This document shows positions 34,326 through 55,540 of a stretch of DNA of 64,000 bases, in pieces. The notes below the pieces were generated by a model, which made no database searches, was not told the DNA's origin, and saw nothing but the letters and a program-made list of their open reading frames with translations. The stretch is from Gammaproteobacteria bacterium (GTDB taxonomy: Bacteria > Pseudomonadota > Gammaproteobacteria > CAJXQU01). Numbering within the stretch: the first letter of the stretch is position 1; every line of letters starts with the position of its first letter. Made by a program: the position numbers and the translations under genes. The stretch spans positions 1,376,001 through 1,440,000 of the forward strand of contig CBDEGZ010000003.1 of assembly GCA_965238175.1 (NCBI GenBank). The letters run 5' to 3'.

Positions 34326-34823
34326 ATGCGCACAATAATAATTTTTATCCTTCTTATATTCGCGTCAATTCTCCCTGCGGTAGATGAGCCTTTGATGACT
34401 CAACTTGATGTGCCAGTTGCTGCAACAGATTTTACTTTGCCGGATATCAATAAAGATCTAATTAAATTTTCTGATTATAAAGGTAAGTTTATCTTGGTGA
34501 ATTTCTGGGCGATGTGGTGTCCACCTTGTGTAAAAGAATTTCCATCAATGCAAACACTATATGAAACTATTGGGAATGAGAATCTTGAAATAATTGCTGT
34601 TCATGCAGGACCAGTAGAAAGTGATATAGAATCGTTCGTGCAAACTCATAATATTTCTTTTAAGGTTCTTATTGACAAAGATGTAATCGTTAAAGGTTGG
34701 AAAGTAGCAGGGTTACCAATAAGTTACTTGGTTAACCCAGATGGAAAAATTATATATCAGGCAATCGGCCCAAGAGATTGGGACGTTGATGCAATGAGAG
34801 AATTGATTAGTTTTATAAATTAA
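34326..34823 (+). CDS. TlpA-family thioredoxin
   Basis: VNFWAMWCPPCVKE, GLP. Confidence 0.88.
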   Translation: MRTIIIFILLIFASILPAVDEPLMTQLDVPVAATDFTLPDINKDLIKFSDYKGKFILVNFWAMWCPPCVKEFPSMQTLYETIGNENLEIIAVHAGPVESDIESFVQTHNISFKVLIDKDVIVKGWKVAGLPISYLVNPDGKIIYQAIGPRDWDVDAMRELISFIN

Positions 34824-38477: not shown

Positions 38478-40408
38478 GCACTCGAATTTCCTTACTTTCA
38501 ACGGAGAAGTCTTTACTTGATTATTTAAATAAGTGGTTGAGTGCTGGAGCCTATTTAGAATATCTCGAACAGCCTGAGTCTCTCTATCATTGTTTAAAAG
38601 AAAATTGTGGTGCGCCGGATATCGTTGTAGTTGGATTAACTGTACAAGAGCCGATCAGGATCGCAGAACATATTCTTGTGATGAAACGCGGGATCAAGAT
38701 TGTTATTCTTTCTACGAACAGCCAACAGAATGTTTTACAGAAGGCCATACAGTTCTCACCTTTCTTAAACTCGGATGTCATTTCATATGAATTCAAAGAA
38801 CAAGAACAACTACTTAAGAAGTTACAGAGTCTAGTCAATATTCTTGAGAAGCAAAGGGTCTATGCAAACACCATCGCTGGAGTAGAGAAAGAAAGAAAGG
38901 CTATTTTACCAACGAGACCATTAGTCGCTAATTATCTAGATACGCTATTAGATAGAATACCCATTGGTATTATTAACCTTGATGCTAAGGGGAGAATTCT
39001 AAATCTCAATAGCCGTGCTCAGAGCTTGTTAAGGCACAGTGAAAGGGAGCTGGTGGGTACGATTTTCCCGACCTTGTTTTCAGATCAAGAAGTACAAAAT
39101 GTTGAGCAGATGGTCGAGCATTCACTTAGAGGTGATGAGGAGAATAATTCACATATAGTGTGCGTATCGTTTTCCGATCAAAAACGATACCTTGATATTA
39201 GTATCTCGTTAATTTCAGGTAATACTTTAGAAGCCATTCTGACCGTTATTATGCAAGAGGTTACAGATAAGGTGCGAGAGGAAAGGAAAAGGAAAAAAGC
39301 TGAGAAAGCATTGAAAGAAAATGAACAGCAGATGAGTTTGGTTATAGATTCAATTCCTGAACTCATTGCCTACGTAGATGCAGATTTGGCTTATCAGTTT
39401 AACAACAAAGCATTTGAGAACTGGTTTGGTTTCACTCGTGATGAAATAAAAGGGAAAAAAGTCTGGCAAGTCATTGGAAAAAAACCATATGCGGTGTTGG
39501 AGAAATACGTCAAGAAAGTAATGGCCGGGGTAACGATCACGTTTGAAGAAAAACTCAACTATCCTTACCGTGGCGAAGTGTATATCCGAAGTACTTATGT
39601 GCCGAATTTTGACGACGAGTGTAAAGTCTGTGGATTCTTTCTACTAACATCTGATATTACACAATCTAAAAATAATGAAGAAGGTGAGAAGAAGCATTTA
39701 CTTGAACTTGCTCACACTTCAAGGATTATTACACTGGGTGAGATGAGTTCGCAATTGTCACATGAACTAGCGCAGCCACTTACTTCTATAGAAACATACA
39801 GTCGCGCATGTATCAAGTTGATTGAAAAAGGTCGGATTGAGATGTCCGAGATAAAAGATACTTTCGAGAATATCTCTAGTCAGGCTATGCGTGCACATGA
39901 TGTTATGCATGAGCTTAGAAACTTTGTTAAAAAAGATGCATCTCGAACAAATGTATCAATTAATGATCTGATCAAATCGGCTATAAAATTATTGCAAATT
40001 GAGTTTCGCGAACCTCAACCAGACATTAATCTTGAGTTGAGTGAAGCACTACCACAGATTTTTGCTGATCGTACATTAATCGAACAAGTTTTGATTAATT
40101 TGGTGAAAAATGCTTTAGAAGCAATGGAGGCACTCGAAAAGTCAAAACGTAATTTGACCTTGCAAACAGAATTGCTAAAAGGCTCTGAGATCATGGTTTC
40201 GGTTCAGGATAGTGGTCCAGGTTTATCGGATTACGAATTCAGTAAAATTTTTGAAGCATTTTATACAACAAAACCTGATGGTATGGGTATGGGGCTGGCA
40301 ATTACTCGATCAGTAATAGATGCACACGGTGGTGAGTTGAAAGTTATGCCAAATAGTTTAGGTGGAACAACATTCAACTTTACCTTACCTACAATAAACA
40401 CTCATTAG
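38474..40408 (+). CDS. Cytoplasmic pseudo-REC/PAS-PAS sensor histidine kinase (FixL-like)
   Basis: HELAQPL H-box, QVLINLVKNA, DSGPG, GMGMGL; two PAS domains; no TM; ATGA overlap with the ACAD gene. Confidence 0.9.
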   Translation: MSTRISLLSTEKSLLDYLNKWLSAGAYLEYLEQPESLYHCLKENCGAPDIVVVGLTVQEPIRIAEHILVMKRGIKIVILSTNSQQNVLQKAIQFSPFLNSDVISYEFKEQEQLLKKLQSLVNILEKQRVYANTIAGVEKERKAILPTRPLVANYLDTLLDRIPIGIINLDAKGRILNLNSRAQSLLRHSERELVGTIFPTLFSDQEVQNVEQMVEHSLRGDEENNSHIVCVSFSDQKRYLDISISLISGNTLEAILTVIMQEVTDKVREERKRKKAEKALKENEQQMSLVIDSIPELIAYVDADLAYQFNNKAFENWFGFTRDEIKGKKVWQVIGKKPYAVLEKYVKKVMAGVTITFEEKLNYPYRGEVYIRSTYVPNFDDECKVCGFFLLTSDITQSKNNEEGEKKHLLELAHTSRIITLGEMSSQLSHELAQPLTSIETYSRACIKLIEKGRIEMSEIKDTFENISSQAMRAHDVMHELRNFVKKDASRTNVSINDLIKSAIKLLQIEFREPQPDINLELSEALPQIFADRTLIEQVLINLVKNALEAMEALEKSKRNLTLQTELLKGSEIMVSVQDSGPGLSDYEFSKIFEAFYTTKPDGMGMGLAITRSVIDAHGGELKVMPNSLGGTTFNFTLPTINTH

Positions 40409-40418
40409 TGGGAATGAT

Positions 40419-41033
40419 ATGGAAAATGTATATATAGTTGATGATGATCCAGCGGTACGTGATTCTTTATCGATGCTTCTAAAATCTGAAGATTACAATC
40501 CTACTCAGTTTTCTAATCCTAAGGATTTTCTTAAGAGTGCGGATGGCTTATCCGAGGGTATTATTATTCTTGATCTATGCATGCCAGAACTAACGGGCCT
40601 AGAGGTAATGCAAGAGTTGATCAAACAAGGGAATACATTACCAATTATTTGTATTACTGGGCATGGTGATGTTCCTACTTCAGTTCAGGCGCTTAAAATG
40701 GGCGCTTACGATTTTCTTGAGAAGCCTTATGACTCTTCGTACTTAATAGAACGAATTAAAGACTGTACAAAAGATGAGCTTGGCCAAAGACACTGGGATA
40801 TTAACAGTCTTCGTGCAAAAGAAATGATCACTAAATTAACGCCTAGAGAATATGAAGTGATGGAAGGCATGGTTGATGGTTTTAGAAATAAACAAATTGC
40901 CTATAACATGGATATTAGTATTAGAACTGTCGAGCTTCACCGCGTTCATGTGATGGATAAATTTGAAGCAAAGTCGCTTGCAGATGTTTTGAAGATTGCT
41001 ATTGCAGCAGACTACAAGTACTCAAAAATATAA
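40419..41033 (+). CDS. FixJ/TodT-like response regulator (REC + LuxR HTH)
   Basis: VDDD, LDLCMP, TGHGDV, LTPRE..V, NKQIA..IS.RTVE.HR. Confidence 0.92.
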   Translation: MENVYIVDDDPAVRDSLSMLLKSEDYNPTQFSNPKDFLKSADGLSEGIIILDLCMPELTGLEVMQELIKQGNTLPIICITGHGDVPTSVQALKMGAYDFLEKPYDSSYLIERIKDCTKDELGQRHWDINSLRAKEMITKLTPREYEVMEGMVDGFRNKQIAYNMDISIRTVELHRVHVMDKFEAKSLADVLKIAIAADYKYSKI

Positions 41034-41100: not shown

Positions 41101-41916
41101 CTAAAATAGTGTTTCGATCATTTCGTGTAATACAACAATAATTTCCCGATCGTCCGATAAAATATTAGCAATAGCGCATTTACAAGCCGCTGATGGTTCA
41201 AAGCCACGGTTAATTAATTTTGCTGTATAGACTAATAAACGTGTGCTTGCTCCTTCACTCAAGCCGTTACCGACGAGATTACGCGTCATGCCTGCAAGTC
41301 TAACAAGACGTTCACATAATTCCTCTGTGAGGCTTGTTTCATCATGAATGATTTTCGTTTCAAATTTTTCCTCAGGATAATCAAAGTCAATGGAGATAAA
41401 TCGCTGTCTTGTACTTGGTTTAAGATCTTTAACGGCGCTTTGATAACCCGGATTATAGGAGATAGTGAGACTAAAATCATCGGTTGCCGGCAACAGTTCA
41501 CCCAGTTTTTCTAGTGGTAGTATTCTTCGATCGTCACACAGAGGATGTATAACGACTGTTGTATCTTTTCTAGCTTCAACAATTTCATCGAGATAGCAGA
41601 AACAACCGTGCTTTACCGCGATTGTCAAAGGACCATCTTGCCAGACAGTGTTGTCTCCTTGAATTAAATAACGTCCTACAAGGTCAGATGTGGTTAAGTC
41701 ATCGTGGCAGGAGACGGTAATTAATGCTCTTTTGTGGTACCAACTCATATATTCCATGAATCTTGTTTTGCCACACCCTGTTGGGCCTTTTAAAAGGACT
41801 GGAATTTTATCAGCAACGGCAGAGTTGAAAATTTCAATTTCATTGGCTGTTGCTAGGTAGTAAGGTTTTTCTTTAATGTAGTTATTCCAGCTTTCTATTA
41901 CGTTTTCTGAGATCAT
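41101..41916 (-). CDS. CbbQ/NirQ/NorQ-family MoxR AAA+ ATPase
   Basis: LKGPTGCGKTRF, DLVGR, YLDEIVEAR, SYNPGYQ, STRLL. Confidence 0.92.
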   Translation of the reverse strand: MISENVIESWNNYIKEKPYYLATANEIEIFNSAVADKIPVLLKGPTGCGKTRFMEYMSWYHKRALITVSCHDDLTTSDLVGRYLIQGDNTVWQDGPLTIAVKHGCFCYLDEIVEARKDTTVVIHPLCDDRRILPLEKLGELLPATDDFSLTISYNPGYQSAVKDLKPSTRQRFISIDFDYPEEKFETKIIHDETSLTEELCERLVRLAGMTRNLVGNGLSEGASTRLLVYTAKLINRGFEPSAACKCAIANILSDDREIIVVLHEMIETLF

Positions 41917-41920
41917 ATTT

Positions 41921-44038
41921 TTATGCCGTTAGGTATTTATAAATAGTTGATATTTGTACTGGTAACTGTGAGATATCTGATATTAATTGATAGCGATTTG
42001 ATCCCAGCATATGAGGCAAATAATCGAGGCCTTCTTTATCAAAGGTTAAAACAAAAGGGTTTAAGGCCAGCGCGCTAGCTTCCTGGACAGCTTTGCGTGT
42101 ATCTTCAACTCCATAGTGGCCACGGTAACTATCAACATCATCGGGCTTACCATCTGTGAGCATGAAAAGTATTTTTGTTTTAGCTGAAGTTTCCAATAAA
42201 ATTTTACTCAAATGTCTGATCGAAGCTCCCATGCGAGTATATTGTTGTGGTTGCATAGCAAAAATACGTTGTTTAATCGATTTGCTATAGGGTTCGGAGA
42301 AATATTTGATTGGATAAATACGACAGCTATTTCGACCAGATCCAGAGAAGGCATAGATAGCATGTTGATCACCGAGTTTTTCCAAGACTTTACATAGTAG
42401 CCATGTAGATTGCTTAATGGCTTTATTCTTCCAACCGGATGTAGAACCGCTTATGTCGACAGCGAATAAAATTGCGACATCACGCTTATTTCTGTTGTTA
42501 CGGAGATAGAGTTTTTGATAATCACCTGTGTTTTTATTGATATTTGATCTGGCAGATATCCATGCATCAATATCGATCTCATCACCATCCGATTGATAGC
42601 GTATATATTTTTGATCGTTTAATAATAGATCAAATATTTTTTTGATCCGCTGTTCAGCATATTTCAACGAGTCTTCGGACTCATTGAGATCAGAAATCAT
42701 ATCTTCCGGTAACGGATCGACAGCGACTTCTTTAATGCAACACCAGTCTTTTCTATAATTATGTAATGATGCATCCCATTCCTTATAGTAAAAAATATCG
42801 TCAGCGTTATGTTTTACTACTGATAGATCATCTTGCAATTCACTTTCTTCAGGTTGTACTGGTAATGAGTCCCAAAGTTCCCGTCCAGTCTCACTTATTA
42901 GATCGGATTTTTGTTGCTCTTCTGAAAGAGGAGTACTGCGAATAAAAACGCGACTGTCTGATTTTATCTCCGTGTCTATATTCGCTATTAAGTTATCGAC
43001 ATTTTCAGTGGGGTTCATTATCTGTGGGCTATGAGCATCAGGCGTAAGTCCATTAATAATTTTGTCGGGTAGGAAATCTGGTTGATAACTAACGTTAGGT
43101 AATAGATATTTTTGATCAATTAGTTTGTTTGTGAGATCAATACTGCTTTTGACTGAAGTATGATCATAATCCACAAAAATATTTTCTGGATAATCGACCT
43201 GATTTTTGATATTCAGTGATTCGATATCTCGCCAGATCCCAGGATAGTCATGACGAATAGTTTGATCAATCCTTAATGTTTCGATTGTAGAGAATAATTC
43301 TAGATAACTTTGACCGTATCTTTCTTCAGTATCCTGTAATGCTTGCACGGCGTCCCATGTACGGTAATGAACCTGACCAACGAGATGAAATATTAATATT
43401 TTATAAAGTTTGTAATTATCCGCATAATTATCAAAAGTTGCGATGCTTGAAGGTAAATATAGTTGATGGCCATCAGTATAGGCAAAACTGCCATCCTTAG
43501 TTTGTATCGAAATAGGTATTTGAGATTTGTGAATGCTTATGGCTAATTTATCGATCGTATCTATTACCTTATTTAATTCTACAACGTGGATTTGAACGTT
43601 ATTGATCCTAGTGTAGTTTTTATAGTCACTAATTAAATCGCTAGCCGCTTTTGAATCATTTGCTTGCAGATAATGTTGAACATCCTCGAGCCAATGTTCA
43701 TATTGATCTTGTTCCATATTATCTAAAACGGAAGATGAAGCTAATAAAAGCTGATAAGCATGCTCTGATGACAGATTAGATATCAAGCGTAGTTGTGACA
43801 AGAAAAAAGACTGAGTTGGATGACTACGTTTTGCTAATTCATTAGCCGGTTTTATTATCGGTGCTTTAGATTTTAAATTGCCTAGAATCAATTCAATTCT
43901 AATTTTAAGTTCGGTACTGCTCATACCTCCACACGAACCTGTTTGTTTTGATTCCAGAGAACCATGCTTTTCTGAACGTAACTTGTTTAGTTTATTAGAA
44001 TGGCCTGTACGATCAAACCATTTTGATAAAAACTTCAT
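41921..44038 (-). CDS. CbbO/NorD-like von Willebrand A protein
   Basis: AYTDG, Y.EWD...Y..DWC, DISGST MIDAS, YTRMGA.IRH, LTDGKP.D; start uncertain (TTG 44086 possible). Confidence 0.88.
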   Translation of the reverse strand: MKFLSKWFDRTGHSNKLNKLRSEKHGSLESKQTGSCGGMSSTELKIRIELILGNLKSKAPIIKPANELAKRSHPTQSFFLSQLRLISNLSSEHAYQLLLASSSVLDNMEQDQYEHWLEDVQHYLQANDSKAASDLISDYKNYTRINNVQIHVVELNKVIDTIDKLAISIHKSQIPISIQTKDGSFAYTDGHQLYLPSSIATFDNYADNYKLYKILIFHLVGQVHYRTWDAVQALQDTEERYGQSYLELFSTIETLRIDQTIRHDYPGIWRDIESLNIKNQVDYPENIFVDYDHTSVKSSIDLTNKLIDQKYLLPNVSYQPDFLPDKIINGLTPDAHSPQIMNPTENVDNLIANIDTEIKSDSRVFIRSTPLSEEQQKSDLISETGRELWDSLPVQPEESELQDDLSVVKHNADDIFYYKEWDASLHNYRKDWCCIKEVAVDPLPEDMISDLNESEDSLKYAEQRIKKIFDLLLNDQKYIRYQSDGDEIDIDAWISARSNINKNTGDYQKLYLRNNRNKRDVAILFAVDISGSTSGWKNKAIKQSTWLLCKVLEKLGDQHAIYAFSGSGRNSCRIYPIKYFSEPYSKSIKQRIFAMQPQQYTRMGASIRHLSKILLETSAKTKILFMLTDGKPDDVDSYRGHYGVEDTRKAVQEASALALNPFVLTFDKEGLDYLPHMLGSNRYQLISDISQLPVQISTIYKYLTA

Positions 44039-44225
44039 ATTTTTAAAGATTCTACATTCAAATGTAGTTAGCTTAGATTGAATCAACAGACGCTTTATAT
44101 ACGTACTTATACTGAATAATTACTACAAGAGAAACACTCTGGTTGAGATCGATTATACATTCAGTCCGCGGTGCTGAAGTTGAGCAGTTTTTGACAAATT
44201 ATTACTAGCATGCTTAACAAGATAG

Positions 44226-44244
44226 GGATATTTACGTATTCACA
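44226..44244 (+). promoter_or_regulatory. Shared regulator site upstream of the monooxygenase operon
   Basis: GGATATTTACGTATTCACA, identical to 54129-54147. Confidence 0.75.
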
Positions 44245-44373: not shown

Positions 44374-45555
44374 ATGAATAAGTTTTTAATCAATATTCGG
44401 TATTTTATGGCGCCAATACTCATACTAGTGAGTATGTTTGGCGTTTTAATTGGCGGTCCATTTGTATGGACAGGTGTCGTACTTTTTGGTGTTGGGATTA
44501 TCTTAGATACTCTTACCATGTCTATGCATCCAGATGGAGCTGGTGTCGATGAAGATGGTGACACAAATGGTATTCCTGGATTGCAGAACATGGTGATGTA
44601 CATCATGTTGCCAGTATTTGCACTTCTTCAAGTCGCTATGGCTTGGCGGATCTACCAATACGTAGGTGGTGTACCTATGGAACCGGGGATGCTCTTTGGT
44701 ATGTTGCCTGTGCAAAATGGAATAACAGGAGCACAGTTAGTAGGTGCGACTATTTCTACGGGTGTCTTTGCCGGTATCGGTATTATCTATGGGCATGAGT
44801 TAGCTCATACTAAAGGGTTTAGCTTTGTAATTTCACGCTTAATGATGGGTTTAAGTGGTTCTGCACATTTCTGCTATGCACACGTTTATAACCATCATCT
44901 AGAGCTTGCACATGAAGATGATCCTGCAACTTCTCCAAGAGGTCGCGGTATCTATAGGCACTTTTGGTTGTCGCATATGGGGCAATCAAAATTCCTTTTC
45001 CGAATGGAAAAAGAACGTTTGGCTAAATTAGGCAAGTCTTTCATATCTTTAGATAACCGTTGGATCCGCGGTTATTTCATGAGCTTACCAACAATTCTTT
45101 TATTCTTGTGGGTTGGTGGACCTATTGGAATCGCTTGCATGTTTCTGATTTGGACTGTGTCTAATTTTGAATTAGAAGCACTTAACTATATGGAACATTA
45201 TGGTCTTATCCGAGAAAAAGGTCAGCCTATCGATTACCGACACTCATGGGATAACGATAATTTATTCAGTGCTTGGTTCTTTATTGAAATAGGTAGACAA
45301 GGTGATCATCATGATCGTGGTGAAACACATTTTTGGGAATTAGATAACGTTGGATCTCCTAATGCAAGATGGGGATATTTCACAGAGTTTACCTATGCAT
45401 TAGTTCCTCCCCTATATCATGCAGTCATGAAAAATAAGCTTGCGACATGGGACAAAGAGTTTGCTAGTGAAGGTGAGCTTGAGATAGCAGCCCGGATTAA
45501 TAAACAGGCTAATTATGAAGTGTCAGAAGATTTCACTGATTACGCCAAAATATAA
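44374..45555 (+). CDS. Membrane di-iron monooxygenase, AlkB/XylM superfamily (atypical)
   Basis: HELAH, HVYNHH, DPATS, NYMEHYG, RQGDHH boxes; multiple TM helices. Confidence 0.88.
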   Translation: MNKFLINIRYFMAPILILVSMFGVLIGGPFVWTGVVLFGVGIILDTLTMSMHPDGAGVDEDGDTNGIPGLQNMVMYIMLPVFALLQVAMAWRIYQYVGGVPMEPGMLFGMLPVQNGITGAQLVGATISTGVFAGIGIIYGHELAHTKGFSFVISRLMMGLSGSAHFCYAHVYNHHLELAHEDDPATSPRGRGIYRHFWLSHMGQSKFLFRMEKERLAKLGKSFISLDNRWIRGYFMSLPTILLFLWVGGPIGIACMFLIWTVSNFELEALNYMEHYGLIREKGQPIDYRHSWDNDNLFSAWFFIEIGRQGDHHDRGETHFWELDNVGSPNARWGYFTEFTYALVPPLYHAVMKNKLATWDKEFASEGELEIAARINKQANYEVSEDFTDYAKI

Positions 45556-45648
45556 TTCATAACAACTATGTTAATAGGTCTGGGACATCAAGTCTCAGAT
45601 CTATATTTAATAAAGTTACGAATATTAAAAAAGGTAAAGGAGAACATC

Positions 45649-46008
45649 ATGAGTGAAAGTTTATATGACAGGCTTGGTGGACATGATTCTATAAAGGAAC
45701 TTGCAGCAACAGTCTTTGCAAACCACTGCAAGAATCCATCGATAAAAACGCGTTATGCGGACAGTGATACAGATGAAGTAGTGCGAAAAGTAACAGAGTT
45801 TATGTGTGCAGGTTTTGGTGGTACAGAAACTTATACCGGACAAGATATGTTGACTGCACATACAGGAATGAACATTTCTGAAGCTGAGTTTAATGCGGTA
45901 GTTGATGACGTTATGTCAGCACTGGACACTCATCGTGTTGGTGATGTTGAGAAAAATGAAATCCTTTGTGCTCTTTGGTCAATGAGACCAGAGATAGTAC
46001 ATGTATAA
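45649..46008 (+). CDS. Group I truncated haemoglobin (cytoplasmic)
   Basis: SLYDRLGG, GG..Y.G.DM..AH.GMNIS..EF; AAGGAG RBS before ATG 45649. Confidence 0.9.
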   Translation: MSESLYDRLGGHDSIKELAATVFANHCKNPSIKTRYADSDTDEVVRKVTEFMCAGFGGTETYTGQDMLTAHTGMNISEAEFNAVVDDVMSALDTHRVGDVEKNEILCALWSMRPEIVHV

Positions 46009-46057
46009 AAGGATTTATAGAAAGACAACATAAATAAAAATAAAGAGAGGTTCTAAG

Positions 46058-46237
46058 ATGAAAGTTGAATGGGATGAGAAAGCATGTCAACACGCAGGAG
46101 TATGCGTTAAAACATTACCAGCTGTTTTTAAAATAGAGGATGGAAGTTTCGTTATAGATCCTCCAGCAGCCTCTGAAGAAGAAGTAAGGGATGTTCTCGC
46201 TAAATGTCCATCAGGTGCTTTAACTGCGAAAGATTAA
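46058..46237 (+). CDS. Small divergent 4Fe-4S monocluster ferredoxin (Fer4_19/YjdI-like), 59 aa
   Basis: Below the ORF-track cut-off; MKVEWDEKACQHAGVCVKTLPAVF...KCPSGALTAKD with GAGAGG RBS. Confidence 0.85.
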   Translation: MKVEWDEKACQHAGVCVKTLPAVFKIEDGSFVIDPPAASEEEVRDVLAKCPSGALTAKD

Positions 46238-46287
46238 AAACAATTTTTCATATAATAAAAATTATATAGTTTTTGGAGGAGAGTTAA

Positions 46288-46974
46288 ATGTCTATTGGAG
46301 ATCATTTATCAGACGTAAAAGTACTTTGGGGGGTTGCAGGTTGTGCAAACACAAGTAAATGCCTTCTAACCGCAGCAGAAAAGGGGGTTGATATCGACGG
46401 AAGATCAGTTGATATGCAATCAGAGTCAGCAATGAACGAGATATTAAGTTTCTCACCATTTGGCTTGCTCCCAGTCCTGAAAGATGTTGATTTTTACGTC
46501 TATGGAACAAGCGCAATAATGTCTTACCTTGATGATAAAGGTTTCGGCAATTCATTGGTTCCACGTAATGCAGTTGCAAGAACTCAACAATATCAATGGA
46601 TTCATATTGCGAACGACGTATTTTCTAAAGCAGTAGAGAAATTAAGTGGTGATAGTAATGATGCTTCAGCAATTTCTGAAGTGAAAAATATATTGTCAGC
46701 GTTAGATGCACGGTTAGGATCGAAACAACAAAGAGGTGATTATATTATTGGTGATTTCAGTCTTGCTGATATTCACTGGGCACCATACATTCATCACTGC
46801 TGTTTATATGGGCAAGAATCATTAGTTGATGCTCTTCCAAATGTTAAAACATGGTGGAGCCATATGAAAATAAGAAAGAGTACAAGCAAAGAAAATTACA
46901 CAGCTTATACCGTCTTGCCATCACTTGATGAAATTCGTAGTAACAAGTTGCGATCTGTCAGTATTAATGTCTAA
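46288..46974 (+). CDS. Glutathione S-transferase family protein
   Basis: SPFG.LPVL.D, AIMSYLDD, GDFSLADI. Confidence 0.85.
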   Translation: MSIGDHLSDVKVLWGVAGCANTSKCLLTAAEKGVDIDGRSVDMQSESAMNEILSFSPFGLLPVLKDVDFYVYGTSAIMSYLDDKGFGNSLVPRNAVARTQQYQWIHIANDVFSKAVEKLSGDSNDASAISEVKNILSALDARLGSKQQRGDYIIGDFSLADIHWAPYIHHCCLYGQESLVDALPNVKTWWSHMKIRKSTSKENYTAYTVLPSLDEIRSNKLRSVSINV

Positions 46975-47011
46975 AGTTTTTGAATTATTAACTCGGCAAG
47001 GATGAGTATTT

Positions 47012-48106
47012 ATGTTTGGTTTTTTTAAAAACAAAAAACAAAATTATGAGGCTGAGGTTATTTCTGCTAGGAAGACGCTGACAGTAAAGCCTGGTGAGAA
47101 TTTACTAAAAACAGCACTTGAAGCAGGAATAGCCTGGCCGAATGATTGTCGGGTTGGCAGTTGTGGCACATGTAAATGTCGATTGGTAGATGGAAAGATC
47201 AAACCACTTGCCGACTTTAGTTACGTACTTGAAGGAGACGAACTTAGAGATGGTTACATACTTGCTTGCCAGACGGCTTTAAAAACTAATATCAAAGTAG
47301 ATGTTGAATTACTTGAAACGAATGGTGTTGAGCAAACTAAACTTTGGGGATCTGATGCGCTTATTTCAGAGATCAATGATTTAACTCATGACATTAAGGA
47401 AATAGTTGTTCAGATAACTGATCCAAAGCTTTTAGCTTCTAGCGATATTTTGTACAAGGCTGGAGAGTGTGCAGAGCTTAAATTGCCTCATATTGATCAG
47501 GCACGATCCTATTCATTTGCAAGTGCTCCAAAGCCAGGGCAAAAAGATTTTCGTTTTTACATCAGATTAGTTCCTGGTGGTGAATTTACTACTTGGTTAT
47601 TTGATGCAGATAGAACAGGTGAAGCATTAAAAATATCGGGGCCATATGGTGGTTTTTGGTTAAGAGAAGAGACTACACCGATTATTTGTGTTGCAGGTGG
47701 CAGTGGCATGAGTGCAATTATTGGGATTTTACAAGGTGCAATGCAAGAAAATATTAAACGTGATGTACGTTTTCTATTTGGTGCGAGAACACAAGCAGAT
47801 CTTTATTGTGACGAAATAATTAGTGAATTAGCTAACTATTGGGAAAGTCAGAATCTTGGGAAATTCGAATATATACCTTGTTTATCTGAGGAGCCTGAAG
47901 GCACTTCATGGCAAGGTAATAAGGGATTTGTAACAGAGTTTATAACTAATGGTTCAAGTGATCAGATAGTTGGACAAGCTTATCTATGTGGTCCTCCGGG
48001 GATGATCGATGCCGCTATCAGCGTTTTTGAAGAAAATGGCATGAATAGCGAAGCAATATTCTTCGATAAATTCCTCGATAGTAGCAGTATGCCTGGAGGC
48101 AGGTAA
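47012..48106 (+). CDS. 2Fe-2S ferredoxin/FAD-NAD(P)H reductase (XylA-like monooxygenase reductase)
   Basis: CRVGSCGTCKC...LAC, RSYSFAS, AGGSG, YLCGPP, FDKF. Confidence 0.92.
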   Translation: MFGFFKNKKQNYEAEVISARKTLTVKPGENLLKTALEAGIAWPNDCRVGSCGTCKCRLVDGKIKPLADFSYVLEGDELRDGYILACQTALKTNIKVDVELLETNGVEQTKLWGSDALISEINDLTHDIKEIVVQITDPKLLASSDILYKAGECAELKLPHIDQARSYSFASAPKPGQKDFRFYIRLVPGGEFTTWLFDADRTGEALKISGPYGGFWLREETTPIICVAGGSGMSAIIGILQGAMQENIKRDVRFLFGARTQADLYCDEIISELANYWESQNLGKFEYIPCLSEEPEGTSWQGNKGFVTEFITNGSSDQIVGQAYLCGPPGMIDAAISVFEENGMNSEAIFFDKFLDSSSMPGGR

Positions 48107-48170
48107 TTATTAAAAGCTTAAGGCACACAAAAAAGCCTTATTTAAAAACTAAAAGTAGGAGGTAAGGAAA

Positions 48171-48377
48171 ATGGCTTCATTTAGAGCGCTAATAGTAATG
48201 GCAATTTGGACAGGAATTGTTGGTTATGGTCTGTACCAAATAGGTGCACACGTTAATTACAGAGATCCTTTGTGGGCACTTGGAACAGGCACAGCATTGC
48301 TAATAACTCATATGGTTAATATGTACATTTATTTCAAAGTGGCAGGAGAAAAACCATTTCAGTGGTTCGCTAGTTAG
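48171..48377 (+). CDS. Small two-TM membrane protein
   Basis: Strong RBS, two hydrophobic segments, in operon position. Confidence 0.7.
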   Translation: MASFRALIVMAIWTGIVGYGLYQIGAHVNYRDPLWALGTGTALLITHMVNMYIYFKVAGEKPFQWFAS

Positions 48378-48538
48378 CCTGGTTTTTTATTAGTAATTAG
48401 TGGGAAGAATAAGTGGAACACTAGCAAGTGACATAAAAAAGTATGTCTCTTTCGATAAGTCAAATGAGGGTTACTTATTGTTAGATAACATAGATAGATA
48501 TAAAAATAATTTAACGTATCCTGAGGGAGTATTTAACA

Positions 48539-49753
48539 ATGAAACGAAAAATATTAGCGGTAGTGATGGCGTCGTTATATATACCAGCAAGCCAAGCTGG
48601 AACATTTGGTACGGATTTAAATAATAACATGTTGCCAGCCACAGGGGGGATGGGTGGAGCATCTATTGCACGTACGGTCGAACCTGCAGCGGCAGTGTTT
48701 GGAAATCCAGCAACTTTAACAGAGTACAACGAAGGCACTAGTTTTACTTTTGGAGCAACATTTTTTGATCCGACACTTGAGGCTGAGCATGATGGTAGTA
48801 TCACTGGTACAGCTTGGGAAGGGACATCCAATGCAAATGACTATTTGGTACCTACAGTTGCTGTCACACAAGCATTTAGCCCTAACCTGGTAGTTGGACT
48901 AGGTTTAACTGCAACTTCAGGTGTTGGTTCAGATTTTAGAGGCACACCGAATAGTTTAGACCCTACTGGGGAGTTAATATTATTTGCTGCAAACCTAGGG
49001 GTTGGATATAAATTATCCGACAACCTATCACTGGGTGCGACGGCAACAATAGGTAATGGCTATTTTCAAGCCAGTTTGACTAATGATACAGGTTCAGCGC
49101 ATGATTTTGGCTTCAGAATTACAGCTGGTGCAAAGTATGATATTGGTGCTACAAGTATCGGTGCTTATTACCGAAGTAAGCTAAATATTGAATATGAACA
49201 ATATATTGCTAGAGGTGATGGTACATTTTGGGATGATCATGTTGCACAACCAGAAGAATTCGCAATTGGGATAGCGAATAACAGTTTGGTGGGAGGAAAC
49301 CTCCAGGTTAATTTAGACGTTATTCATAAAGACTGGTCAGATGCACAGTTCTACAAGGATTTCTATCGTGATCAAACAGTAGTTGCACTTGGCACACAAT
49401 TAACTACAGGACCGGCTCAATGGAGAATTGGATATAGTCATGCACGAGATCCTATCAAAAGAAACCTGCCACTTACGACTGTTATAGGCATAGGAAATAA
49501 CACAGAAATCGGTGCGCCAGGTGGTGGTAGTATTCCAGTTACGGGTGCTGTTGTGGAATATTTCCAAGCAACGAATGCAGCTGCGATATGGGAAGATACA
49601 ATAACAGCAGGTGTTGGTTATCAATTGTTACCTAATATTAAAATCGATTTACATGCAGCGTATACACTAGATGAAGATCAACAAATTGGTGGTACTAAAG
49701 TTGATATTGATGCTTGGCAACTTGGTTTTGGATTCACATGGTCTTTTAAATAA
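48539..49753 (+). CDS. FadL/OmpP1/TodX-type outer-membrane hydrophobic-solute channel
   Basis: Signal peptide, GMGGA..A....AAVFGNPA hatch motif, terminal aromatic beta-strand. Confidence 0.85.
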   Translation: MKRKILAVVMASLYIPASQAGTFGTDLNNNMLPATGGMGGASIARTVEPAAAVFGNPATLTEYNEGTSFTFGATFFDPTLEAEHDGSITGTAWEGTSNANDYLVPTVAVTQAFSPNLVVGLGLTATSGVGSDFRGTPNSLDPTGELILFAANLGVGYKLSDNLSLGATATIGNGYFQASLTNDTGSAHDFGFRITAGAKYDIGATSIGAYYRSKLNIEYEQYIARGDGTFWDDHVAQPEEFAIGIANNSLVGGNLQVNLDVIHKDWSDAQFYKDFYRDQTVVALGTQLTTGPAQWRIGYSHARDPIKRNLPLTTVIGIGNNTEIGAPGGGSIPVTGAVVEYFQATNAAAIWEDTITAGVGYQLLPNIKIDLHAAYTLDEDQQIGGTKVDIDAWQLGFGFTWSFK

Positions 49754-49789
49754 ACCAGGTAAATAAGAAAAAATAAGAGAGAAATTAAT

Positions 49790-50275
49790 ATGAAAAGTTT
49801 AACGAAAAACCTACGAGTATTATTCGTAATTTGTGCGCTGTTCATGTCGTATAGTGTATATGCTGCTGATCATAGTGATGCACCCGTTGGTCCATCACTA
49901 TTTGATCGCATTGGTGGAGAAGCTAAAGCGCATCAAATTGTTGGTGATATTTGGACTAACCATACTCAAAATCCTATCGTCAAAGATCGATTTGCAAATA
50001 GTGATCCTGCCTATGTAAAAGCAAGGGTGTATGAAATCTTTGCTGCGGCAACTGGTGGACCTGTTGAGTACACTGGCAAAGATATGAAAACCACCCATGC
50101 AGGAATGAACATTAGTGAAATGGAATTTAATGCGGTAGTAGACGATGTACTAGCAGCTCTTGCTAAACATGGAGTAGCCCAGCAGGAGCAAAATGAAGTA
50201 CTAGCAATTCTTTGGTCTGTTAGAGGCGATATTGTAAATTCAAACATAACAACTAAAACACTAACTGCTGAATAA
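49790..50275 (+). CDS. Group I truncated haemoglobin with signal peptide (periplasmic)
   Basis: Signal peptide (VYA-A), SLFDRIGG, TGGP..YTGKDM..THAGMNIS..EF. Confidence 0.88.
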   Translation: MKSLTKNLRVLFVICALFMSYSVYAADHSDAPVGPSLFDRIGGEAKAHQIVGDIWTNHTQNPIVKDRFANSDPAYVKARVYEIFAAATGGPVEYTGKDMKTTHAGMNISEMEFNAVVDDVLAALAKHGVAQQEQNEVLAILWSVRGDIVNSNITTKTLTAE

Positions 50276-50317: not shown

Positions 50318-50356
50318 AAACATCAGGCTCTAATTCATTAAAGGGCCTGATGTTTT
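50318..50356 (+). terminator. Rho-independent terminator after the monooxygenase operon
   Basis: AAACATCAGGCTC...GGGCCTGATGTTTTT stem plus U tract. Confidence 0.7.
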
Positions 50357-50432: not shown

Positions 50433-50708
50433 ATGCCTAAGTATCTTATTGAAAGAGATATACCAGACGCTGGTAGTTTGAAAGCAGAAGAATTAACTGG
50501 AATCTCACAAAAATCTTGTTCAATTTTAAAAGAAATGGGGCCTGAAATTCAGTGGGTTCATAGTTATGTAACAGACAATAAAGTATATTGTGTGTACAAC
50601 GCACCTGATGTAGAAGCAATTCAAACACATGCTGAAAAAGGTGGTTTTCCAGCAAACAGTATTTCTCAGATCAAAACAGTAATTGATCCTACAACTGCTG
50701 AAGGTTAA
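50433..50708 (+). CDS. DUF4242 (SCO4226-like) small protein
   Basis: MPKYLIERDIP, WVHSYV..K.YCVY.AP, HA..GGFPAN.I. Confidence 0.85.
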   Translation: MPKYLIERDIPDAGSLKAEELTGISQKSCSILKEMGPEIQWVHSYVTDNKVYCVYNAPDVEAIQTHAEKGGFPANSISQIKTVIDPTTAEG

Positions 50709-50748
50709 TAGTTTAATTGATGAATTATTTTTAAGATCCTTAACTCTA

Positions 50749-51816
50749 ATGACTGTCCAGAATAATCTTACTGATATGCTCGGTATCGAATCGCCTATCA
50801 TACAAGCGCCAATGATAGGTGGGTTTACTGGTCCAGAAATGGTAGCAATGGTATCGAATTCTGGTGGCCTTGGTTGCTTTGCTGGCGGAAATTTACCGGT
50901 TAATAATTTGATACAACAATGCGAAGAAATCAAGAAGAAAACAAACAAAAATTTTGCTGTGAACTTGTTTGTCGGTAATCCACTCGTAGAAAAAAGTTAC
51001 AAACCGAATGTTTCAGTTCGTAATACTTTACAACCGTATTTTGATGAATTGGAAATTACTGAAGGAATTCAACAAGAGTACAGTTTGCCGACCAGCTCAA
51101 GTCTATCTGATCTGGTAGATGTTATCTTTGATTTAGATATACCAATCGTTTCATTTACTTTTGGTCTACCCTCAAAGGAGGTGATCTTAAAGCTTAAGAA
51201 GAAAAATGTAATAACGATTGCTACAGCAACAACATTACTTGAGGCAAAAATAATTCAAGATGCTGGGTTTGATGCGGTCGTGTTACAGGGTATAGAGGCA
51301 GGTGGGCATAGAGGAAGTTTTCCAGCAACTAAGGTTGCTGATTCTCAAGGATTAATATCTCTAATAGCCCAAGTTAACGCATCTTTAGCAATACCGATTA
51401 TTGCAACAGGCGGTATTATGAATGGATCAATGATATCGGCTTGTATGCAATGTGGTGCTGATGCGGCTCAACTAGGTACAGCTTTTCTTTTTACAGAAGA
51501 AGCAGATCTTGATAATGAATATCTTCAAGCATTAGGAGACTCTAATAATCAAACCTGCCTTACTAAAAGTTTCACTGGTAAGTATGCTCGGGTATTAAAA
51601 AATAGATTCACTGAGGAAATGGAAGGACTAGAAACAGCAAGTTTCCCGTATCAAAATATCCTAACTACGCCTATTCGAAAAAAAGCGACTGAAGTTGGAA
51701 AGGAAGATTTATTGTCTTATTGGGCTGGTCAGTCTGCATCCGTTGGACGTAAAGGTACTGTAAAGTGGCTAATGCAAACCTTAATTGAAGAACTGCATAC
51801 CGCACAAAATAAATAA
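50749..51816 (+). CDS. Nitronate monooxygenase family flavoprotein
   Basis: PIIQAPM, QGIEAGGHRG, IATGGI, QLGTAF, FTGK.AR, WAGQ. Confidence 0.88.
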   Translation: MTVQNNLTDMLGIESPIIQAPMIGGFTGPEMVAMVSNSGGLGCFAGGNLPVNNLIQQCEEIKKKTNKNFAVNLFVGNPLVEKSYKPNVSVRNTLQPYFDELEITEGIQQEYSLPTSSSLSDLVDVIFDLDIPIVSFTFGLPSKEVILKLKKKNVITIATATTLLEAKIIQDAGFDAVVLQGIEAGGHRGSFPATKVADSQGLISLIAQVNASLAIPIIATGGIMNGSMISACMQCGADAAQLGTAFLFTEEADLDNEYLQALGDSNNQTCLTKSFTGKYARVLKNRFTEEMEGLETASFPYQNILTTPIRKKATEVGKEDLLSYWAGQSASVGRKGTVKWLMQTLIEELHTAQNK

Positions 51817-51909
51817 ATCCCAACTTATATTAGTAATTAGTCTCTGAAAGATTAATTGCTAAAGTCTTACCAATTTATTTAAAGTCTCATTATATAAATA
51901 ATTTCAGTT

Positions 51910-53115
51910 ATGGTAGATCTTGTATTACATAAAGCTGAAAAATATATCCAAGAAGATCTGGACTATTATTTTTCGAAGCAAAGGGACATGCATAACCATG
52001 TTCGACCTGGAAATGATCTCTATAGCTTAACCCCGGACTCTGATCATATTAATGTTAGTTTAGATGATGGGAAAATCGGAAATCTGTTTTTTCCATTTAC
52101 ACCTTTTTCATTGGAAAGAATTTATATCGGAATAAGTTTTCCATTATTTGCTAATAATTGGGGTACTTCTTTTTTAAGGTACTTACTAACGCGTATTAAA
52201 CCTTCGGGCTGTATCATAATGCCTGTCTATCCAGAAATGCAGGCAATAGAGAAAAATTATTGGTCTCGAAGTTTATTGGAAAATATTTTCTTAAGTAGAA
52301 CTCGCTGGTTAGGTATTAGTAATATACATGCAGAAAATGATGGTGTTATGTCACTACGAGTAGGCAGGAGGTGGCCACCCAATATCGTAAGTTGTGCTAA
52401 ATATCTTTTTTCACAAAATAGCAATATCTTACTTAGAGAAGAAATGTCTCAACGATTAGGTGAAAATTCTTTACATGATAATTTCTTAAAGTTACATGAT
52501 TCACATTGGAAAAATGTTACTACCAGTGCAGTTACAGAAAAGATTATTCACGATCATTTTGGAATGAAAAAAGAAGTGCAACTTTGTGATATTAGTGATA
52601 ATCACGGCTTATCAGCAATAGAATGTTTATTAAGTTCATATATAAACGTGGGTGGTGCCGTTTGTTATGTCAAAGATATTGATCCGTTATTAGATACAAG
52701 ATCAATTTCTGATCATTTTCATCATAAGGTTAAAGAACGGTTTGTAGTAAAGCCGACTATAGATTCTTCACTCGATGGTTCTGAATTATACGATGTAATC
52801 TGCATTACGAATATTATCAGCACGATGAAGAATTCTAAGCAGAAAAAGATCTTACAAAGATCTTGGCAAAAATTAAGTTCTGGTGGCTTGCTGATTATTT
52901 ATGAAAATACTGACGAACTGAATGACGGTATTAATTCTGATCAACTCGAAGTTATGCTTAGTGGCTTTGGTACGATTAGTTATTACTCGGATGAAGTTAC
53001 ATCCAGATTTATAGAAGGCGAAGAAATTTCACACTATTCTTCCATTATAGAAGAAGAACTTAAGCAGGAAATGGAAGATAAATTTCATGTTTTTCGAGTA
53101 GTTCAAAAACAGTAA
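51910..53115 (+). CDS. Hypothetical protein with SAM-methyltransferase-like segments
   Basis: YDVI....L..GGLLII and IKPSGCII resemble class I MTase motifs II/III; GxGxG not evident. Confidence 0.45.
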   Translation: MVDLVLHKAEKYIQEDLDYYFSKQRDMHNHVRPGNDLYSLTPDSDHINVSLDDGKIGNLFFPFTPFSLERIYIGISFPLFANNWGTSFLRYLLTRIKPSGCIIMPVYPEMQAIEKNYWSRSLLENIFLSRTRWLGISNIHAENDGVMSLRVGRRWPPNIVSCAKYLFSQNSNILLREEMSQRLGENSLHDNFLKLHDSHWKNVTTSAVTEKIIHDHFGMKKEVQLCDISDNHGLSAIECLLSSYINVGGAVCYVKDIDPLLDTRSISDHFHHKVKERFVVKPTIDSSLDGSELYDVICITNIISTMKNSKQKKILQRSWQKLSSGGLLIIYENTDELNDGINSDQLEVMLSGFGTISYYSDEVTSRFIEGEEISHYSSIIEEELKQEMEDKFHVFRVVQKQ

Positions 53116-54125: not shown

Positions 54126-54170
54126 TAAGGATATTTACGTATTCACAAATAAATTTCAAAGAGTTAGAAT
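54126..54170 (+). promoter_or_regulatory. Shared regulator site abutting a sigma70-like promoter of soxC
   Basis: TAAGGATATTTACGTA followed by TTCACA-N17-TAGAAT. Confidence 0.75.
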
Positions 54171-54208: not shown

Positions 54209-55540
54209 GTGCGAGGTAGGGTGAAGAAAATATCTAAGGATACAGGCGAACTGCTCAAAGAAGTTAAACAAGAAGCAGCACAACTACCTCAGAAGAAAAG
54301 AAGAGATTTTCTTTTGAATGGCGTCAAACTGATTTCTGGTACTGCAGTAGCAGCCAGTGTCGGCAATGTTTTCGCAAACGAAAAATCGCTACCGCCTAAT
54401 GTACCAACATGGACACGATCATTAGGAAGAGGAGTTGTTTCAGTTCCTTATGGGCAACCATCTAAGTTTGAAGATGACGTTGTACGGCGTACGGTCTCCT
54501 GGTTGACTGCAGATCCAATTTCTTCAATAAGTATGACACCTCTTCATGAAATGAAGGGGATTATCACGCCGAGTGGTCTTGTTTTCGAACGATATCATGC
54601 AGGTGTACCTGAAGTTAATCCTGACGAACATAGAATCATTATCCATGGAATGGTTGAAAGACCTATTATTTTAACCATGGAAGAACTGATGGGTTTCCCA
54701 TCGGAATCGGTGATCAATTTTCTTGAATGTCCCGCCAATGGTGGTATGGAATGGCGCGGGACTCAAATGGAAGCGTTACAATTTACACATGGCATGTTGA
54801 GTTGTTGTGAATGGACAGGTGTAAAACTGTCCACACTACTAGGCGAAGTCGGGATCAAAAAAGAGGCAAAATGGGTATTGGCAGAAGGCGCTGATGGCGC
54901 GGCAATGACACGTAGTATTCCTATCGAAAAAGCGCTTGATGACACACTCGTTGTGTATGCACAAAACGGTGAGATGTTAAGACCAGAGCAAGGTTACCCA
55001 GTACGTTTATTTAATCCAGGTTGGGAAGGTAACACCAGTATCAAATGGTTGCGCCGATTAGAAATTGGTGACAAACCATGGTACCAACGAGAAGAAACTT
55101 CTAAGTACACAGATTTAATGCCTGATGGACGAGCTCGAAAGTTTAGCTTTGTTCAAGAAACAAATTCAGTTATCACATCGCCGTGTCCAGAACGTCCTAT
55201 GTTACGTAAAGGTGTGCATGAGCTTGAAGGTATAGCCTGGTCTGGTCGAGGCAAGATAAAAAGGGTGGATGTTTCATTAAATGGTGGTGTTTCCTGGCAA
55301 CCAGCGAGGTTAAAAGGATTGGTCTTATCAAAAGCAATTACTCGATTTAGCTTAGAGATAAATTGGCAGGGTGAACCACTATTACTACAAAGTCGATCAG
55401 TTGATGAAACTGGTTATATTCAACCGACACTAACGCAACTCAGATCAGAGCGTGGTAGTAACTCTATTTACCATAAGAACTCCATTCATACCTGGAAATT
55501 AGATACAGATGGGACGATTAGCAATGTACAGCTTGGTTAA
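54209..55540 (+). CDS. soxC: Sulfane dehydrogenase molybdoprotein SoxC
   Basis: Tat RRDFL, TPL...GIITPSG.VFER.H, FLEC.ANG, RPEQGYP.R. Confidence 0.93.
   Translation: MRGRVKKISKDTGELLKEVKQEAAQLPQKKRRDFLLNGVKLISGTAVAASVGNVFANEKSLPPNVPTWTRSLGRGVVSVPYGQPSKFEDDVVRRTVSWLTADPISSISMTPLHEMKGIITPSGLVFERYHAGVPEVNPDEHRIIIHGMVERPIILTMEELMGFPSESVINFLECPANGGMEWRGTQMEALQFTHGMLSCCEWTGVKLSTLLGEVGIKKEAKWVLAEGADGAAMTRSIPIEKALDDTLVVYAQNGEMLRPEQGYPVRLFNPGWEGNTSIKWLRRLEIGDKPWYQREETSKYTDLMPDGRARKFSFVQETNSVITSPCPERPMLRKGVHELEGIAWSGRGKIKRVDVSLNGGVSWQPARLKGLVLSKAITRFSLEINWQGEPLLLQSRSVDETGYIQPTLTQLRSERGSNSIYHKNSIHTWKLDTDGTISNVQLG

Follow-up and report, generated by a model that had tools for sequence, protein, structure and literature searches.

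Among the biogenic sulfur gases that leave the ocean, the main one is dimethyl sulfide (DMS), a climate-active compound, most of which microbes consume before it can escape. DmoA, one of the enzymes that act on it, is a soluble, flavin-dependent protein unrelated to the FA_desaturase/AlkB-like family PF00487. In the available sections of the sources, DmoAB of Hyphomicrobium sulfonivorans is described as converting DMS, NADH and O2 into methanethiol and formaldehyde (PMC13360808, PMC6548844), and the DMS-consuming enzymes listed in June 2026 are DmoA, DdhA, Tmm and DsoB only (PMC13360808). The accessible text on Methylophaga reports that DMS is broken down via methanethiol in M. thiooxydans and M. 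sulfidovorans, that these are the two of six Methylophaga with the methanethiol oxidase gene mtoX, and that they have neither dmoA nor ddh, their primary enzyme being unidentified (PMC6548844). The Methylophaga DMS enzyme is also marked 'unidentified' in excerpts of further sources (bioRxiv 10.64898/2025.12.05.692484; PMC9563715), and new DMS enzymes have been called for (PMC6524544). This report concerns a stretch of 64,000 nucleotides (the window) from a Gammaproteobacteria bacterium (assembly GCA_965238175.1, contig CBDEGZ010000003.1, positions 1,376,001 to 1,440,000), in which an operon headed by the gene for a membrane di-iron hydroxylase, here called ALK, stands between mtoX and genes of sulfur oxidation. 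With slightly better than even confidence, we read this operon as encoding a membrane monooxygenase of several components that depends on O2 and NAD(P)H and acts directly upstream of methanethiol oxidase, most likely on DMS by C-hydroxylation.

XylM/XylA of the TOL plasmid pWW0 and CymAa/CymAb resemble the ALK system in having a membrane di-iron hydroxylase with a second His box of the AHV..HH type, a separate [2Fe-2S]-FAD-NAD reductase, a FadL-family channel and no rubredoxin; they hydroxylate methyl groups, as ALK putatively does. The ALK system differs from XylMA in its additional small ferredoxin, two-helix membrane protein (tm68), GST, two globins and NorQ/NorD, and in its link to mtoX in place of one to aromatic catabolism; on pWW0, xylMA is flanked by benzyl-alcohol and benzaldehyde dehydrogenase genes, whereas the ALK window has none. 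AlkB/AlkG (FtAlkB; structures 8F6T and 8SBB) shares the fold with ALK, but the ALK genome has no rubredoxin, and the system comes without alkJ-, alkH- and alkK-type genes. DmoAB is alike in the proposed reaction and in its position upstream of MtoX, both putative for ALK. The two are set apart by the description of DmoA, ALK being a PF00487 membrane protein, and ALK would thus be a non-homologous replacement of DmoA. Finally, the mtoX cluster of the window has the mtoX-SCO1/MauG-tlpA gene order published for Methylophaga and Hyphomicrobium; the available text describes those clusters without an oxygenase (PMC6548844), whereas here the ALK system adjoins the cluster and elsewhere is fused to it.

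The original prediction placed eight co-oriented genes at 44374-50275, and all eight open reading frames (ORFs) were found at those coordinates on the + strand, separated by short gaps. ALK (44374..45555, with its ATG at 44374) encodes an integral-membrane di-iron hydroxylase of 393 aa and matches PF00487 at E 1.3e-23. It is followed by a cytoplasmic truncated globin (45649..46008), a 59-aa single-cluster ferredoxin (46058..46237; Pfam Fer4_19, E 5e-15), a GST with Pfam N- and C-terminal domains (46288..46974) and a XylA-like [2Fe-2S] ferredoxin-FAD-NAD(P)H reductase with Fer2, FAD_binding_6 and NAD_binding_1 domains (47012..48106). The last three genes encode tm68, a conserved 68-aa membrane protein without a Pfam family (48171..48377), a 404-aa outer-membrane channel with a signal peptide (48539..49753) and a periplasmic group 1 truncated haemoglobin (49790..50275). 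The family first given for the cytoplasmic globin stands, but its start does not: the ORF opens at 45568, and the 120-aa length of the relatives places the start most likely at Met28 (45649). The predicted terminator is likewise only partly borne out, as the scanner found none, although sequence reading and folding give a hairpin running into a short T tract (50318..50355, +), which is terminator-like rather than canonical; the 75-nt fold at the operon end, second small hairpin included, has -20.4 kcal/mol.

The coupling of ALK to methanethiol oxidation is well supported by its distribution across genomes. The original prediction was staked on homologues not standing mostly without mtoX or sox, and the search run for mtoX gave co-occurrence instead. 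From the class, 400 genomes were drawn once and called ALK-positive when they had a homologue at E <= 1e-60, a threshold set before the mtoX search. The MtoX family SBP56 was present in 15 of 16 ALK-positive genomes of this draw, which span 13 genera, versus 33 of 384 ALK-negative ones; 30 of these 33 carriers pass the curated cut-off, and three are unpublished genomes. In the genus of M. sulfidovorans, the three genomes out of 37 that have ALK are also the three that have SBP56, while in the genus of the window's own genome both occur in G000 and G002 only, of seven genomes. Three sets of ALK genomes reached through their loci had SBP56 in 4/5, 5/5 and 4/5 cases; counted as distinct further genomes, those reached in this way number ten, of which nine had it, the tenth being a Rhodobiaceae metagenome-assembled genome (MAG). 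Over all distinct ALK-positive genomes tested, SBP56 was found in 27 of 30. The carriers include free-living methylotrophs (Methylophaga), Thiothrix- and Cocleimonas-labelled MAGs, genomes of 1.1 Mb and sponge-symbiont-labelled MAGs.

Three further genera combine ALK and mtoX within one co-directional cluster. Locus L083, from a 1.1-Mb genome, reads ALK-fdx-gst-red-tm68-omp-mtoX-sco1/mauG-tlpA (fdx, ferredoxin; red, reductase; omp, outer-membrane protein). In L084, genes for a histidine kinase, a response regulator and two further proteins precede ALK-globin-red-mtoX-sco1/mauG, and L085 reads ALK-tm68-globin-mtoX, with the reductase, a response regulator, an ACAD-like gene and a histidine kinase divergent. 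The association looks old, since the mtoX-fused loci L084 and L085 form the deepest branches of the ALK clade. The two genes lie 1.3 to about 35 kb apart on the same contig in a number of genomes and loci (G000, G002, G018, G380, G223, G376, G181, G343, G080, G041, G042, G043 and L002). Two genomes of 1.1 Mb and 99% completeness (G223 and G376; L083, L086) keep two ALK copies each, one of them fused to an mtoX cluster. The Methylophaga-genus genome G080 carries a 17-gene cluster 7.8 kb from one of its two mtoX copies; about 5 kb from the second copy lies a paralogue of the FadL-type channel, 33% identical (G080:C16:166072-167250), so these channels may be a regular part of mtoX clusters.

Within the window, mtoX (30886..32271, +; SBP56, E 2.1e-43) is preceded directly by a MarR-family regulator (29903..30499, +; MarR_2, E 3.9e-12) and followed by its usual maturation partner, a SCO1/SenC-MauG fusion (32297..34294, +; CCP_MauG and SCO1-SenC), and by a TlpA/AhpC-like thiol-disulfide protein (34326..34823, +). 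On the other side of the ALK operon, soxC-like and soxD-like genes for a molybdoenzyme and a cytochrome c occupy 54209..56510 (+). The position of the operon between mtoX and sox/pdo/sqr is as originally described, with mtoX, SCO1/MauG, soxCD, soxY, SoxB-like, MBL/PDO-like and SQR-like genes all present.

Sequence motifs tie these units together. The upstream motif that ALK was said to share with both neighbours was recovered as an 18-nt element, GGATATTTACGTATT[C/T]AC, with three copies in the window versus 0.09 expected; at up to two mismatches, these three, all on the + strand, are the only ones in the 3.35-Mb genome. Copy 1 (GGATATTTACGTATTTAC; 30720..30737) lies 149 nt 5' of mtoX, copy 2 (44226..44243) lies 131 nt 5' of ALK and overlaps a -35-like TTCACA, and copy 3 (54129..54146) lies 63 nt 5' of soxC, whose operon is the third to carry the motif, an arrangement repeated in L001 and L008. 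A related motif, GGATAT[A/T]TACGTAT with the palindromic core ATATACGTATAT, stands 130-150 nt 5' of ALK in ten relatives (L001-L007, L010, L038 from M. sulfidovorans, and L081). The GGATATTTACGTATTCAC sites are putative operators, for which the candidate binders would be the MarR adjoining mtoX or a NarL/LuxR-type response regulator (40419..41033, +; Response_reg and GerE). The latter follows a PAS-PAS histidine kinase (38474..40408, +), a candidate substrate sensor that also stands beside ALK in L001, L007, L008, L010, L020, L084 and L085. Through the shared operator, the kinase and NarL-type regulator, or the MarR, might turn on mtoX, ALK and soxCD jointly. A shorter TACGTAC-centred repeat (TATACGTACT) occurs beside the start of norD (44096-44112) and twice 5' of a hydrolase gene (35789-36093).

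In the route that we propose, a small hydrophobic methyl-sulfur compound, most likely DMS, would enter across the outer membrane through the FadL-type channel. Electrons would pass from NAD(P)H to the XylA-like FAD/[2Fe-2S] reductase, then probably to the 59-aa ferredoxin and on to the di-iron centre of ALK, which would sit in the inner membrane together with the 68-aa subunit. Terminal methyl groups are hydroxylated by AlkB-type enzymes, and ALK would likewise hydroxylate a methyl C-H of DMS, giving the hemithioacetal CH3-S-CH2OH, which would decay to methanethiol and formaldehyde. Periplasmic MtoX would then turn methanethiol into formaldehyde, sulfide and H2O2; formaldehyde would enter the Fae/tetrahydromethanopterin (H4MPT) route, and sulfide would pass to what the island's SQR, PDO and Sox genes encode. 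The genome itself carries two Fae genes. We infer DMS as the substrate, the oxygenation site and the products of ALK from context only. A bolder statement, to which we give an even chance, is that the ALK clade is the long-sought non-DmoA enzyme converting DMS to methanethiol in marine Gammaproteobacteria; it would then be an AlkB-superfamily oxygenase of a new kind, with an eight-His-plus-Gln di-iron site, a dedicated two-helix membrane subunit, globin partners and one DMS-to-sulfate regulon with MtoX and Sox.

Several observations weigh against DMS hydroxylation or against so close a tie to mtoX. A one-step reaction leaves the GST, the two globins and the ACAD-like, NMO-like, hydrolase and methyltransferase-like genes, which accompany ALK in some lineages, unexplained, and methanethiol itself or another methyl-sulfur compound fits the context almost as well. 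The ALK-positive genome G141, 80% complete and in 870 contigs, shows no SBP56, and none was found in two alphaproteobacterial Rhodobiaceae MAGs of 1.3-1.4 Mb that carry ALK. Since related genomes are not independent, fewer independent events underlie the co-occurrence than its counts suggest. Only one of 80 related loci has mtoX within +-10 kb of ALK, and the link is therefore mostly one of genomes rather than of operons; this scarcity of local synteny first looked like a refutation, a view reversed by the genome-level searches. The structural model of ALK falls below pLDDT 50 in the active-site region, so the size of its pocket cannot be judged. According to the available text of the Methylophaga study, DMS monooxygenase activity went undetected in DMS-grown M. 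thiooxydans and a methyltransferase was proposed instead, and one Methylophaga was described as growing on DMS without mtoX (PMC6548844). With that strain, and with ALK in only 3 of the 37 genus genomes, ALK is not the sole route for DMS. As an argument rather than a result, the usual DMS monooxygenase assay may miss a labile multicomponent membrane enzyme.

The Methylophaga study also gives transcript data. In M. thiooxydans grown on DMS versus methanol, the highly up-regulated genes are reported to include one for a 'fatty acid desaturase' along with those for an NAD(P)H flavin reductase and for a FadL-like porin, and the authors read the induced desaturase as lipid homeostasis, as far as the accessible text goes (PMC6548844). 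M. sulfidovorans carries the whole ALK cluster (L038), and its ALK bears the NCBI label 'fatty acid desaturase'. The DMS-induced desaturase cannot be equated with ALK, a further point on the opposing side, because each of the three Methylophaga-genus genomes with ALK has 2-3 PF00487 genes. Four RNA-seq runs of one study (X1-X4) contain all sampled words of the L081 operon; they are assembled contigs (up to ~150 kb) with one flat depth each, from which no expression or induction can be read, and they were not used as evidence.

It is unlikely that ALK instead oxidises another methylated or reduced sulfur compound, such as methanethiol, dimethyl disulfide or a larger methylthio compound that releases methanethiol. 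With methanethiol as the substrate, CH3SH would give HOCH2SH and then HCHO and H2S, a route on the cytoplasmic side parallel to periplasmic MtoX. Co-occurrence, fusion and co-regulation are equally compatible with any substrate of the methanethiol pathway, and the GST, ACAD-like, hydrolase, NMO-like and methyltransferase-like genes suggest chemistry beyond one hydroxylation. Yet a second methanethiol-removing enzyme in the operon of MtoX would be redundant, and the minimal fused clusters consist of ALK, reductase and at least one small partner followed by mtoX, which fits a single step before MtoX. The Methylophaga with the ALK cluster are, moreover, known users of DMS without a known DMS enzyme in the available text (PMC6548844), which also favours DMS.

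Judging from its sequence, ALK represents a variant of the AlkB/XylM superfamily that is both new and sharply delimited. It aligns with AlkB 8sbb over residues 115-356 with the His boxes in register (phmmer, E 2.3e-29), and the sole PDB match of its model at E <= 0.001 in Foldseek is the AlkB-AlkG complex 8f6t (E 2.2e-8, TMq 0.68). These two results give ALK the AlkB fold, on a model that is poor around the active site (pLDDT 68 overall and below 50 at residues 164-187 and 280-332). Identity to XylM of pWW0 is 27% over residues 4-383 (27-28% across comparisons) and to named AlkBs 26-30%, whereas members of the ALK clade are mutually 55-100% identical; the best 120 database matches show 66-100% identity. 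Among 1.84 billion representatives at 50% identity, the family has one full-length representative (69%, 627 bits) and fragments; the next full-length relatives outside the clade are at most 38% identical, the top scorer reaching 193 bits at 34%. A tree of 89 rows unites all 84 ALK rows in a single clade (SH-aLRT 99) and sets them apart from XylM and the four AlkB-type outgroups, so that the phylogeny suggested at the outset places ALK in a clade of its own rather than with XylM. The tree comes from a quick search, the very long outgroup branches make the outgroup branching order unsure, and two of the 80 loci (L010 and L080) were left out as no clustered ORF was called in them.

The clade is marked by its metal site. 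FtAlkB has four His-rich motifs with nine His ligands for two irons, H321 among them, according to the sections available (PMC10110569). ALK keeps eight of these His, and the ninth is replaced by Gln: Gln309 stands at the H321 position, the first His of the last motif, with Gln in all 84 clade rows and His in 5/5 outgroups and in 24/24 of the nearest non-clade representatives. The resulting signature is IGRQ[G/A/C]DHH. A Glu close to Fe1 is also conserved, as is the Leu that corresponds to FtAlkB L274, and W301-F302-F303 of ALK occupies the position of L313-I314-L315 in the vestibule helix of FtAlkB, by hand mapping of the 8sbb alignment onto FtAlkB numbering. This difference may affect the pocket.

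The replaced ligand could also change reactivity, and ALK might then S-oxygenate DMS to dimethyl sulfoxide (DMSO), with the same outcome as Tmm, DdhA and DsoB. AlkB of P. putida can sulfoxidise methyl thioethers, which favours this reading. We nevertheless consider it highly improbable: it would leave the close link to methanethiol oxidase without a reason, and none of the 57 window ORFs scanned is a DMSO-reductase-type gene. A genome search for Tmm (PF00743) gave just two matches, both N-terminal nucleotide-binding ones of 41 residues.

The AlkB fold and His boxes, together with the XylA-like reductase and a channel of the FadL/TodX/CymD type, equally raise the case for an ordinary hydrocarbon hydroxylase acting on n-alkanes or methyl-aromatics, its association with sulfur genes arising from a shared niche. 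Public annotations of the clade proteins as alkane 1-monooxygenase point the same way, as does the pairing of a PAS kinase with a NarL-type regulator, which we take to resemble the TodST- and StySR-type hydrocarbon sensors. However, the predicted absence of a rubredoxin holds for the operon and for the whole 97.7%-complete genome (no PF00301 match), and no alcohol dehydrogenase, aldehyde dehydrogenase, ring-cleavage family or acyl-CoA synthetase was found among the scanned window ORFs. The pWW0 xyl locus and the AlkB loci retrieved do have such rubredoxin or dehydrogenase genes. ALK is only 26-30% identical to any named AlkB or XylM, it is kept in duplicate, one copy mtoX-fused, in 1.1-Mb genomes, and a shared niche leaves the single operon and the genome-unique shared operator unaccounted for. 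Hydrocarbon hydroxylation is therefore improbable as the role of ALK.

The PF00487 assignment and the published reading of the DMS-induced 'fatty acid desaturase' (PMC6548844, in its accessible part) would also suit a lipid desaturase or hydroxylase serving membrane repair or adaptation under H2O2 or sulfide stress derived from MtoX. In sponge-symbiont, Thiothrix- and Porisulfidus-labelled genomes, one ALK copy indeed lies beside fabA and a MerR/B12-binding regulator. This is the least probable of the roles considered, as the nearest relatives in structure and sequence are AlkB and XylM, not acyl-lipid desaturases, and a dedicated outer-membrane channel, reductase, ferredoxin and sensor kinase suit a catabolic enzyme. 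The fabA-adjacent copies have no separate function, since in eight genomes they are protein-identical to the operon copy of the same genome, and a lipid role drawn from that neighbourhood was ruled out on the same ground.

The duplicated copies have features of their own. In eight gammaproteobacterial MAGs, in the tree clade of Candidatus Porisulfidus-labelled MAGs, both ALK copies of each genome agree at all 382 retained alignment columns but differ between genomes (pairs L015/L016, L053/L054, L055/L056, L051/L052, L048/L049, L071/L073, L031/L044 and L040/L046); one copy of each pair belongs to an fdx-gst-reductase operon and the other stands beside fabA and the MerR/B12-binding regulator. 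This pattern suggests gene conversion or repeated recent duplication. The regulator, seen at L018:8809-9783 (-) and in relatives (cluster 4, 23 loci), is a CarH/LitR-like MerR protein divergent from the second ALK copy; its match to a B12-binding domain is sub-threshold (PF02607, 22.3 bits against a cut-off of 23), and it hints at light control of that copy. In 12 Gammaproteobacteria-labelled MAGs of the Porisulfidus tree clade, the type B loci (L016, L019 and relatives) have the ALK operon co-directional with and directly 3' of infB-rbfA-truB-rpsO-pnp-msrB, which makes the methionine sulfoxide reductase B gene (msrB) its immediate 5' neighbour.

The partner proteins agree with a multicomponent oxygenase. 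Over 332 aa, the reductase shares 39% identity (E 3e-82) with XylA of pWW0, the protein adjoining xylM, and thus is the XylA-type [2Fe-2S]-FAD-NAD(P)H partner that had been predicted; it is present in all three mtoX-fused clusters (L083, L084 and L085). With a XylA-like reductase and no rubredoxin in the genome, the electron path is XylMA-like, supplemented by a small ferredoxin. The cysteine pattern of the latter (C10-x2-A13-x2-C16...C50-P) suggests, through its three Cys, a [3Fe-4S] cluster. The two hydrophobic segments ascribed to tm68 are there to be seen, although only the first cleared the threshold of the hydropathy scan. Prediction of an ALK-tm68 complex scored 0.89 in each of three runs versus 0.00 for the best of three controls, with all contacts agreeing between runs and a partner pLDDT of 91; in the calibration of the predictor, 58 of 80 solved complexes but also 2 of 110 mismatched pairs attained the mark applied, counts that are a rough guide here, where own alignments were used. 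The prediction supports, but does not show, binding of tm68 to ALK. We know of no solved AlkB complex with a tm68-like subunit.

The outer-membrane protein has the barrel fold expected of a FadL channel by structure search, its top Foldseek matches being FadL, TodX, TbuX and CymD (E 4e-21 to 7e-16, TM ~0.6-0.67); the model searched has pLDDT 64 and is unreliable over its first 40 residues. By sequence, the evidence for FadL is weak: CymD 6z34 (E 3e-4) is the sole PDB match below E 0.001, and Pfam and NCBIfam give generic OMP_b-brl or weak BamG-like matches. Both globins belong to the Bac_globin family of Pfam, and the second is a periplasmic truncated globin, as first proposed, with group 1 truncated haemoglobin 7tt9 at E 7e-29, HbN at E ~1e-14 and a Sec-type signal peptide recognised by eye. 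The globins may supply O2 or buffer sulfide or thiols, and the GST may handle thiols or formaldehyde. Divergent from ALK, a NorQ/CbbQ-type MoxR AAA+ ATPase (41101..41916, -; AAA_5 and CbbQ_C) is paired with a NorD-like VWA protein (41921..44086, -; Pfam VWA), and this pair may insert iron into ALK.

Across the 80 related ALK loci, drawn from species-representative genomes, the GST is found near ALK in 37, the reductase in 36, tm68 in 35, the ferredoxin in 25 and a globin in 23, while the FadL-type channel accompanies 15, NorD 12 and NorQ 10. In relatives the cluster extends beyond the 3' end of the operon into SCO4226-like, NMO-like and orf401 genes, which in the window occupy 50433..53115 (+) and continue the cluster in Methylophaga-type relatives. 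The orf401 product (51910-53115) has no Pfam family above threshold and resembles a class I S-adenosylmethionine-dependent methyltransferase (language-model features 0.93-0.95; sub-threshold CheR match); it accompanies ALK in 8 of the 80 loci. An alpha/beta hydrolase (36094..37128, +; Abhydrolase_1) accompanies the ALK cluster in Methylophaga-type loci, and a flavoprotein of acyl-CoA-dehydrogenase fold (37314..38477, +; ACAD), whose best PDB matches are true acyl-CoA dehydrogenases at E 2e-38, is a conserved neighbour of the sensor kinase, found in 9 of the 80 loci and in L085. The NMO-like, ACAD-fold, truncated globin N and NorQ/NorD genes taken together had raised a nitrogen-oxide or nitroalkane reading, which was dropped, as it had no other support and the minimal mtoX-fused clusters lack these genes.

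In the full-text literature searched, to which subscription journals did not belong, no paper was found linking an AlkB/XylM-type enzyme to DMS or mtoX. The ALK system is a strong candidate for the missing marine enzyme of DMS breakdown. If confirmed, the IGRQxDHH gene, present in many marine metagenome proteins, would be a marker for turnover of DMS to methanethiol, and it would account for the formation of methanethiol from DMS in bacteria that have mtoX but no dmoA; to the AlkB family it would add a substrate class and a subunit, both new, as well as an altered metal site. The question is directly testable, since cultured Methylophaga strains carry the whole cluster.

Further features complete the picture of the locus. 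Downstream of the operon, the gene list runs through SCO4226-like, NMO-like, orf401, MBL/PDO-like, soxCD, soxY, SoxA-like, rhodanese, SoxB-like, MBL and SQR-like fusion genes. No RuBisCO was found in the genome. About 15 kb 5' of mtoX, an IS110-family transposase (14062-15120, +) adjoins an integrase-core (rve) transposase (15467-16501, -). A full MTS-type methyltransferase gene (23588-24490) is followed 0.7 kb on by a 134-aa ORF (25159-25563) with the same N-terminal domain matches, which may be a partial duplicate of it, and a 2-oxoglutarate-Fe(II) oxygenase gene lies between the two.

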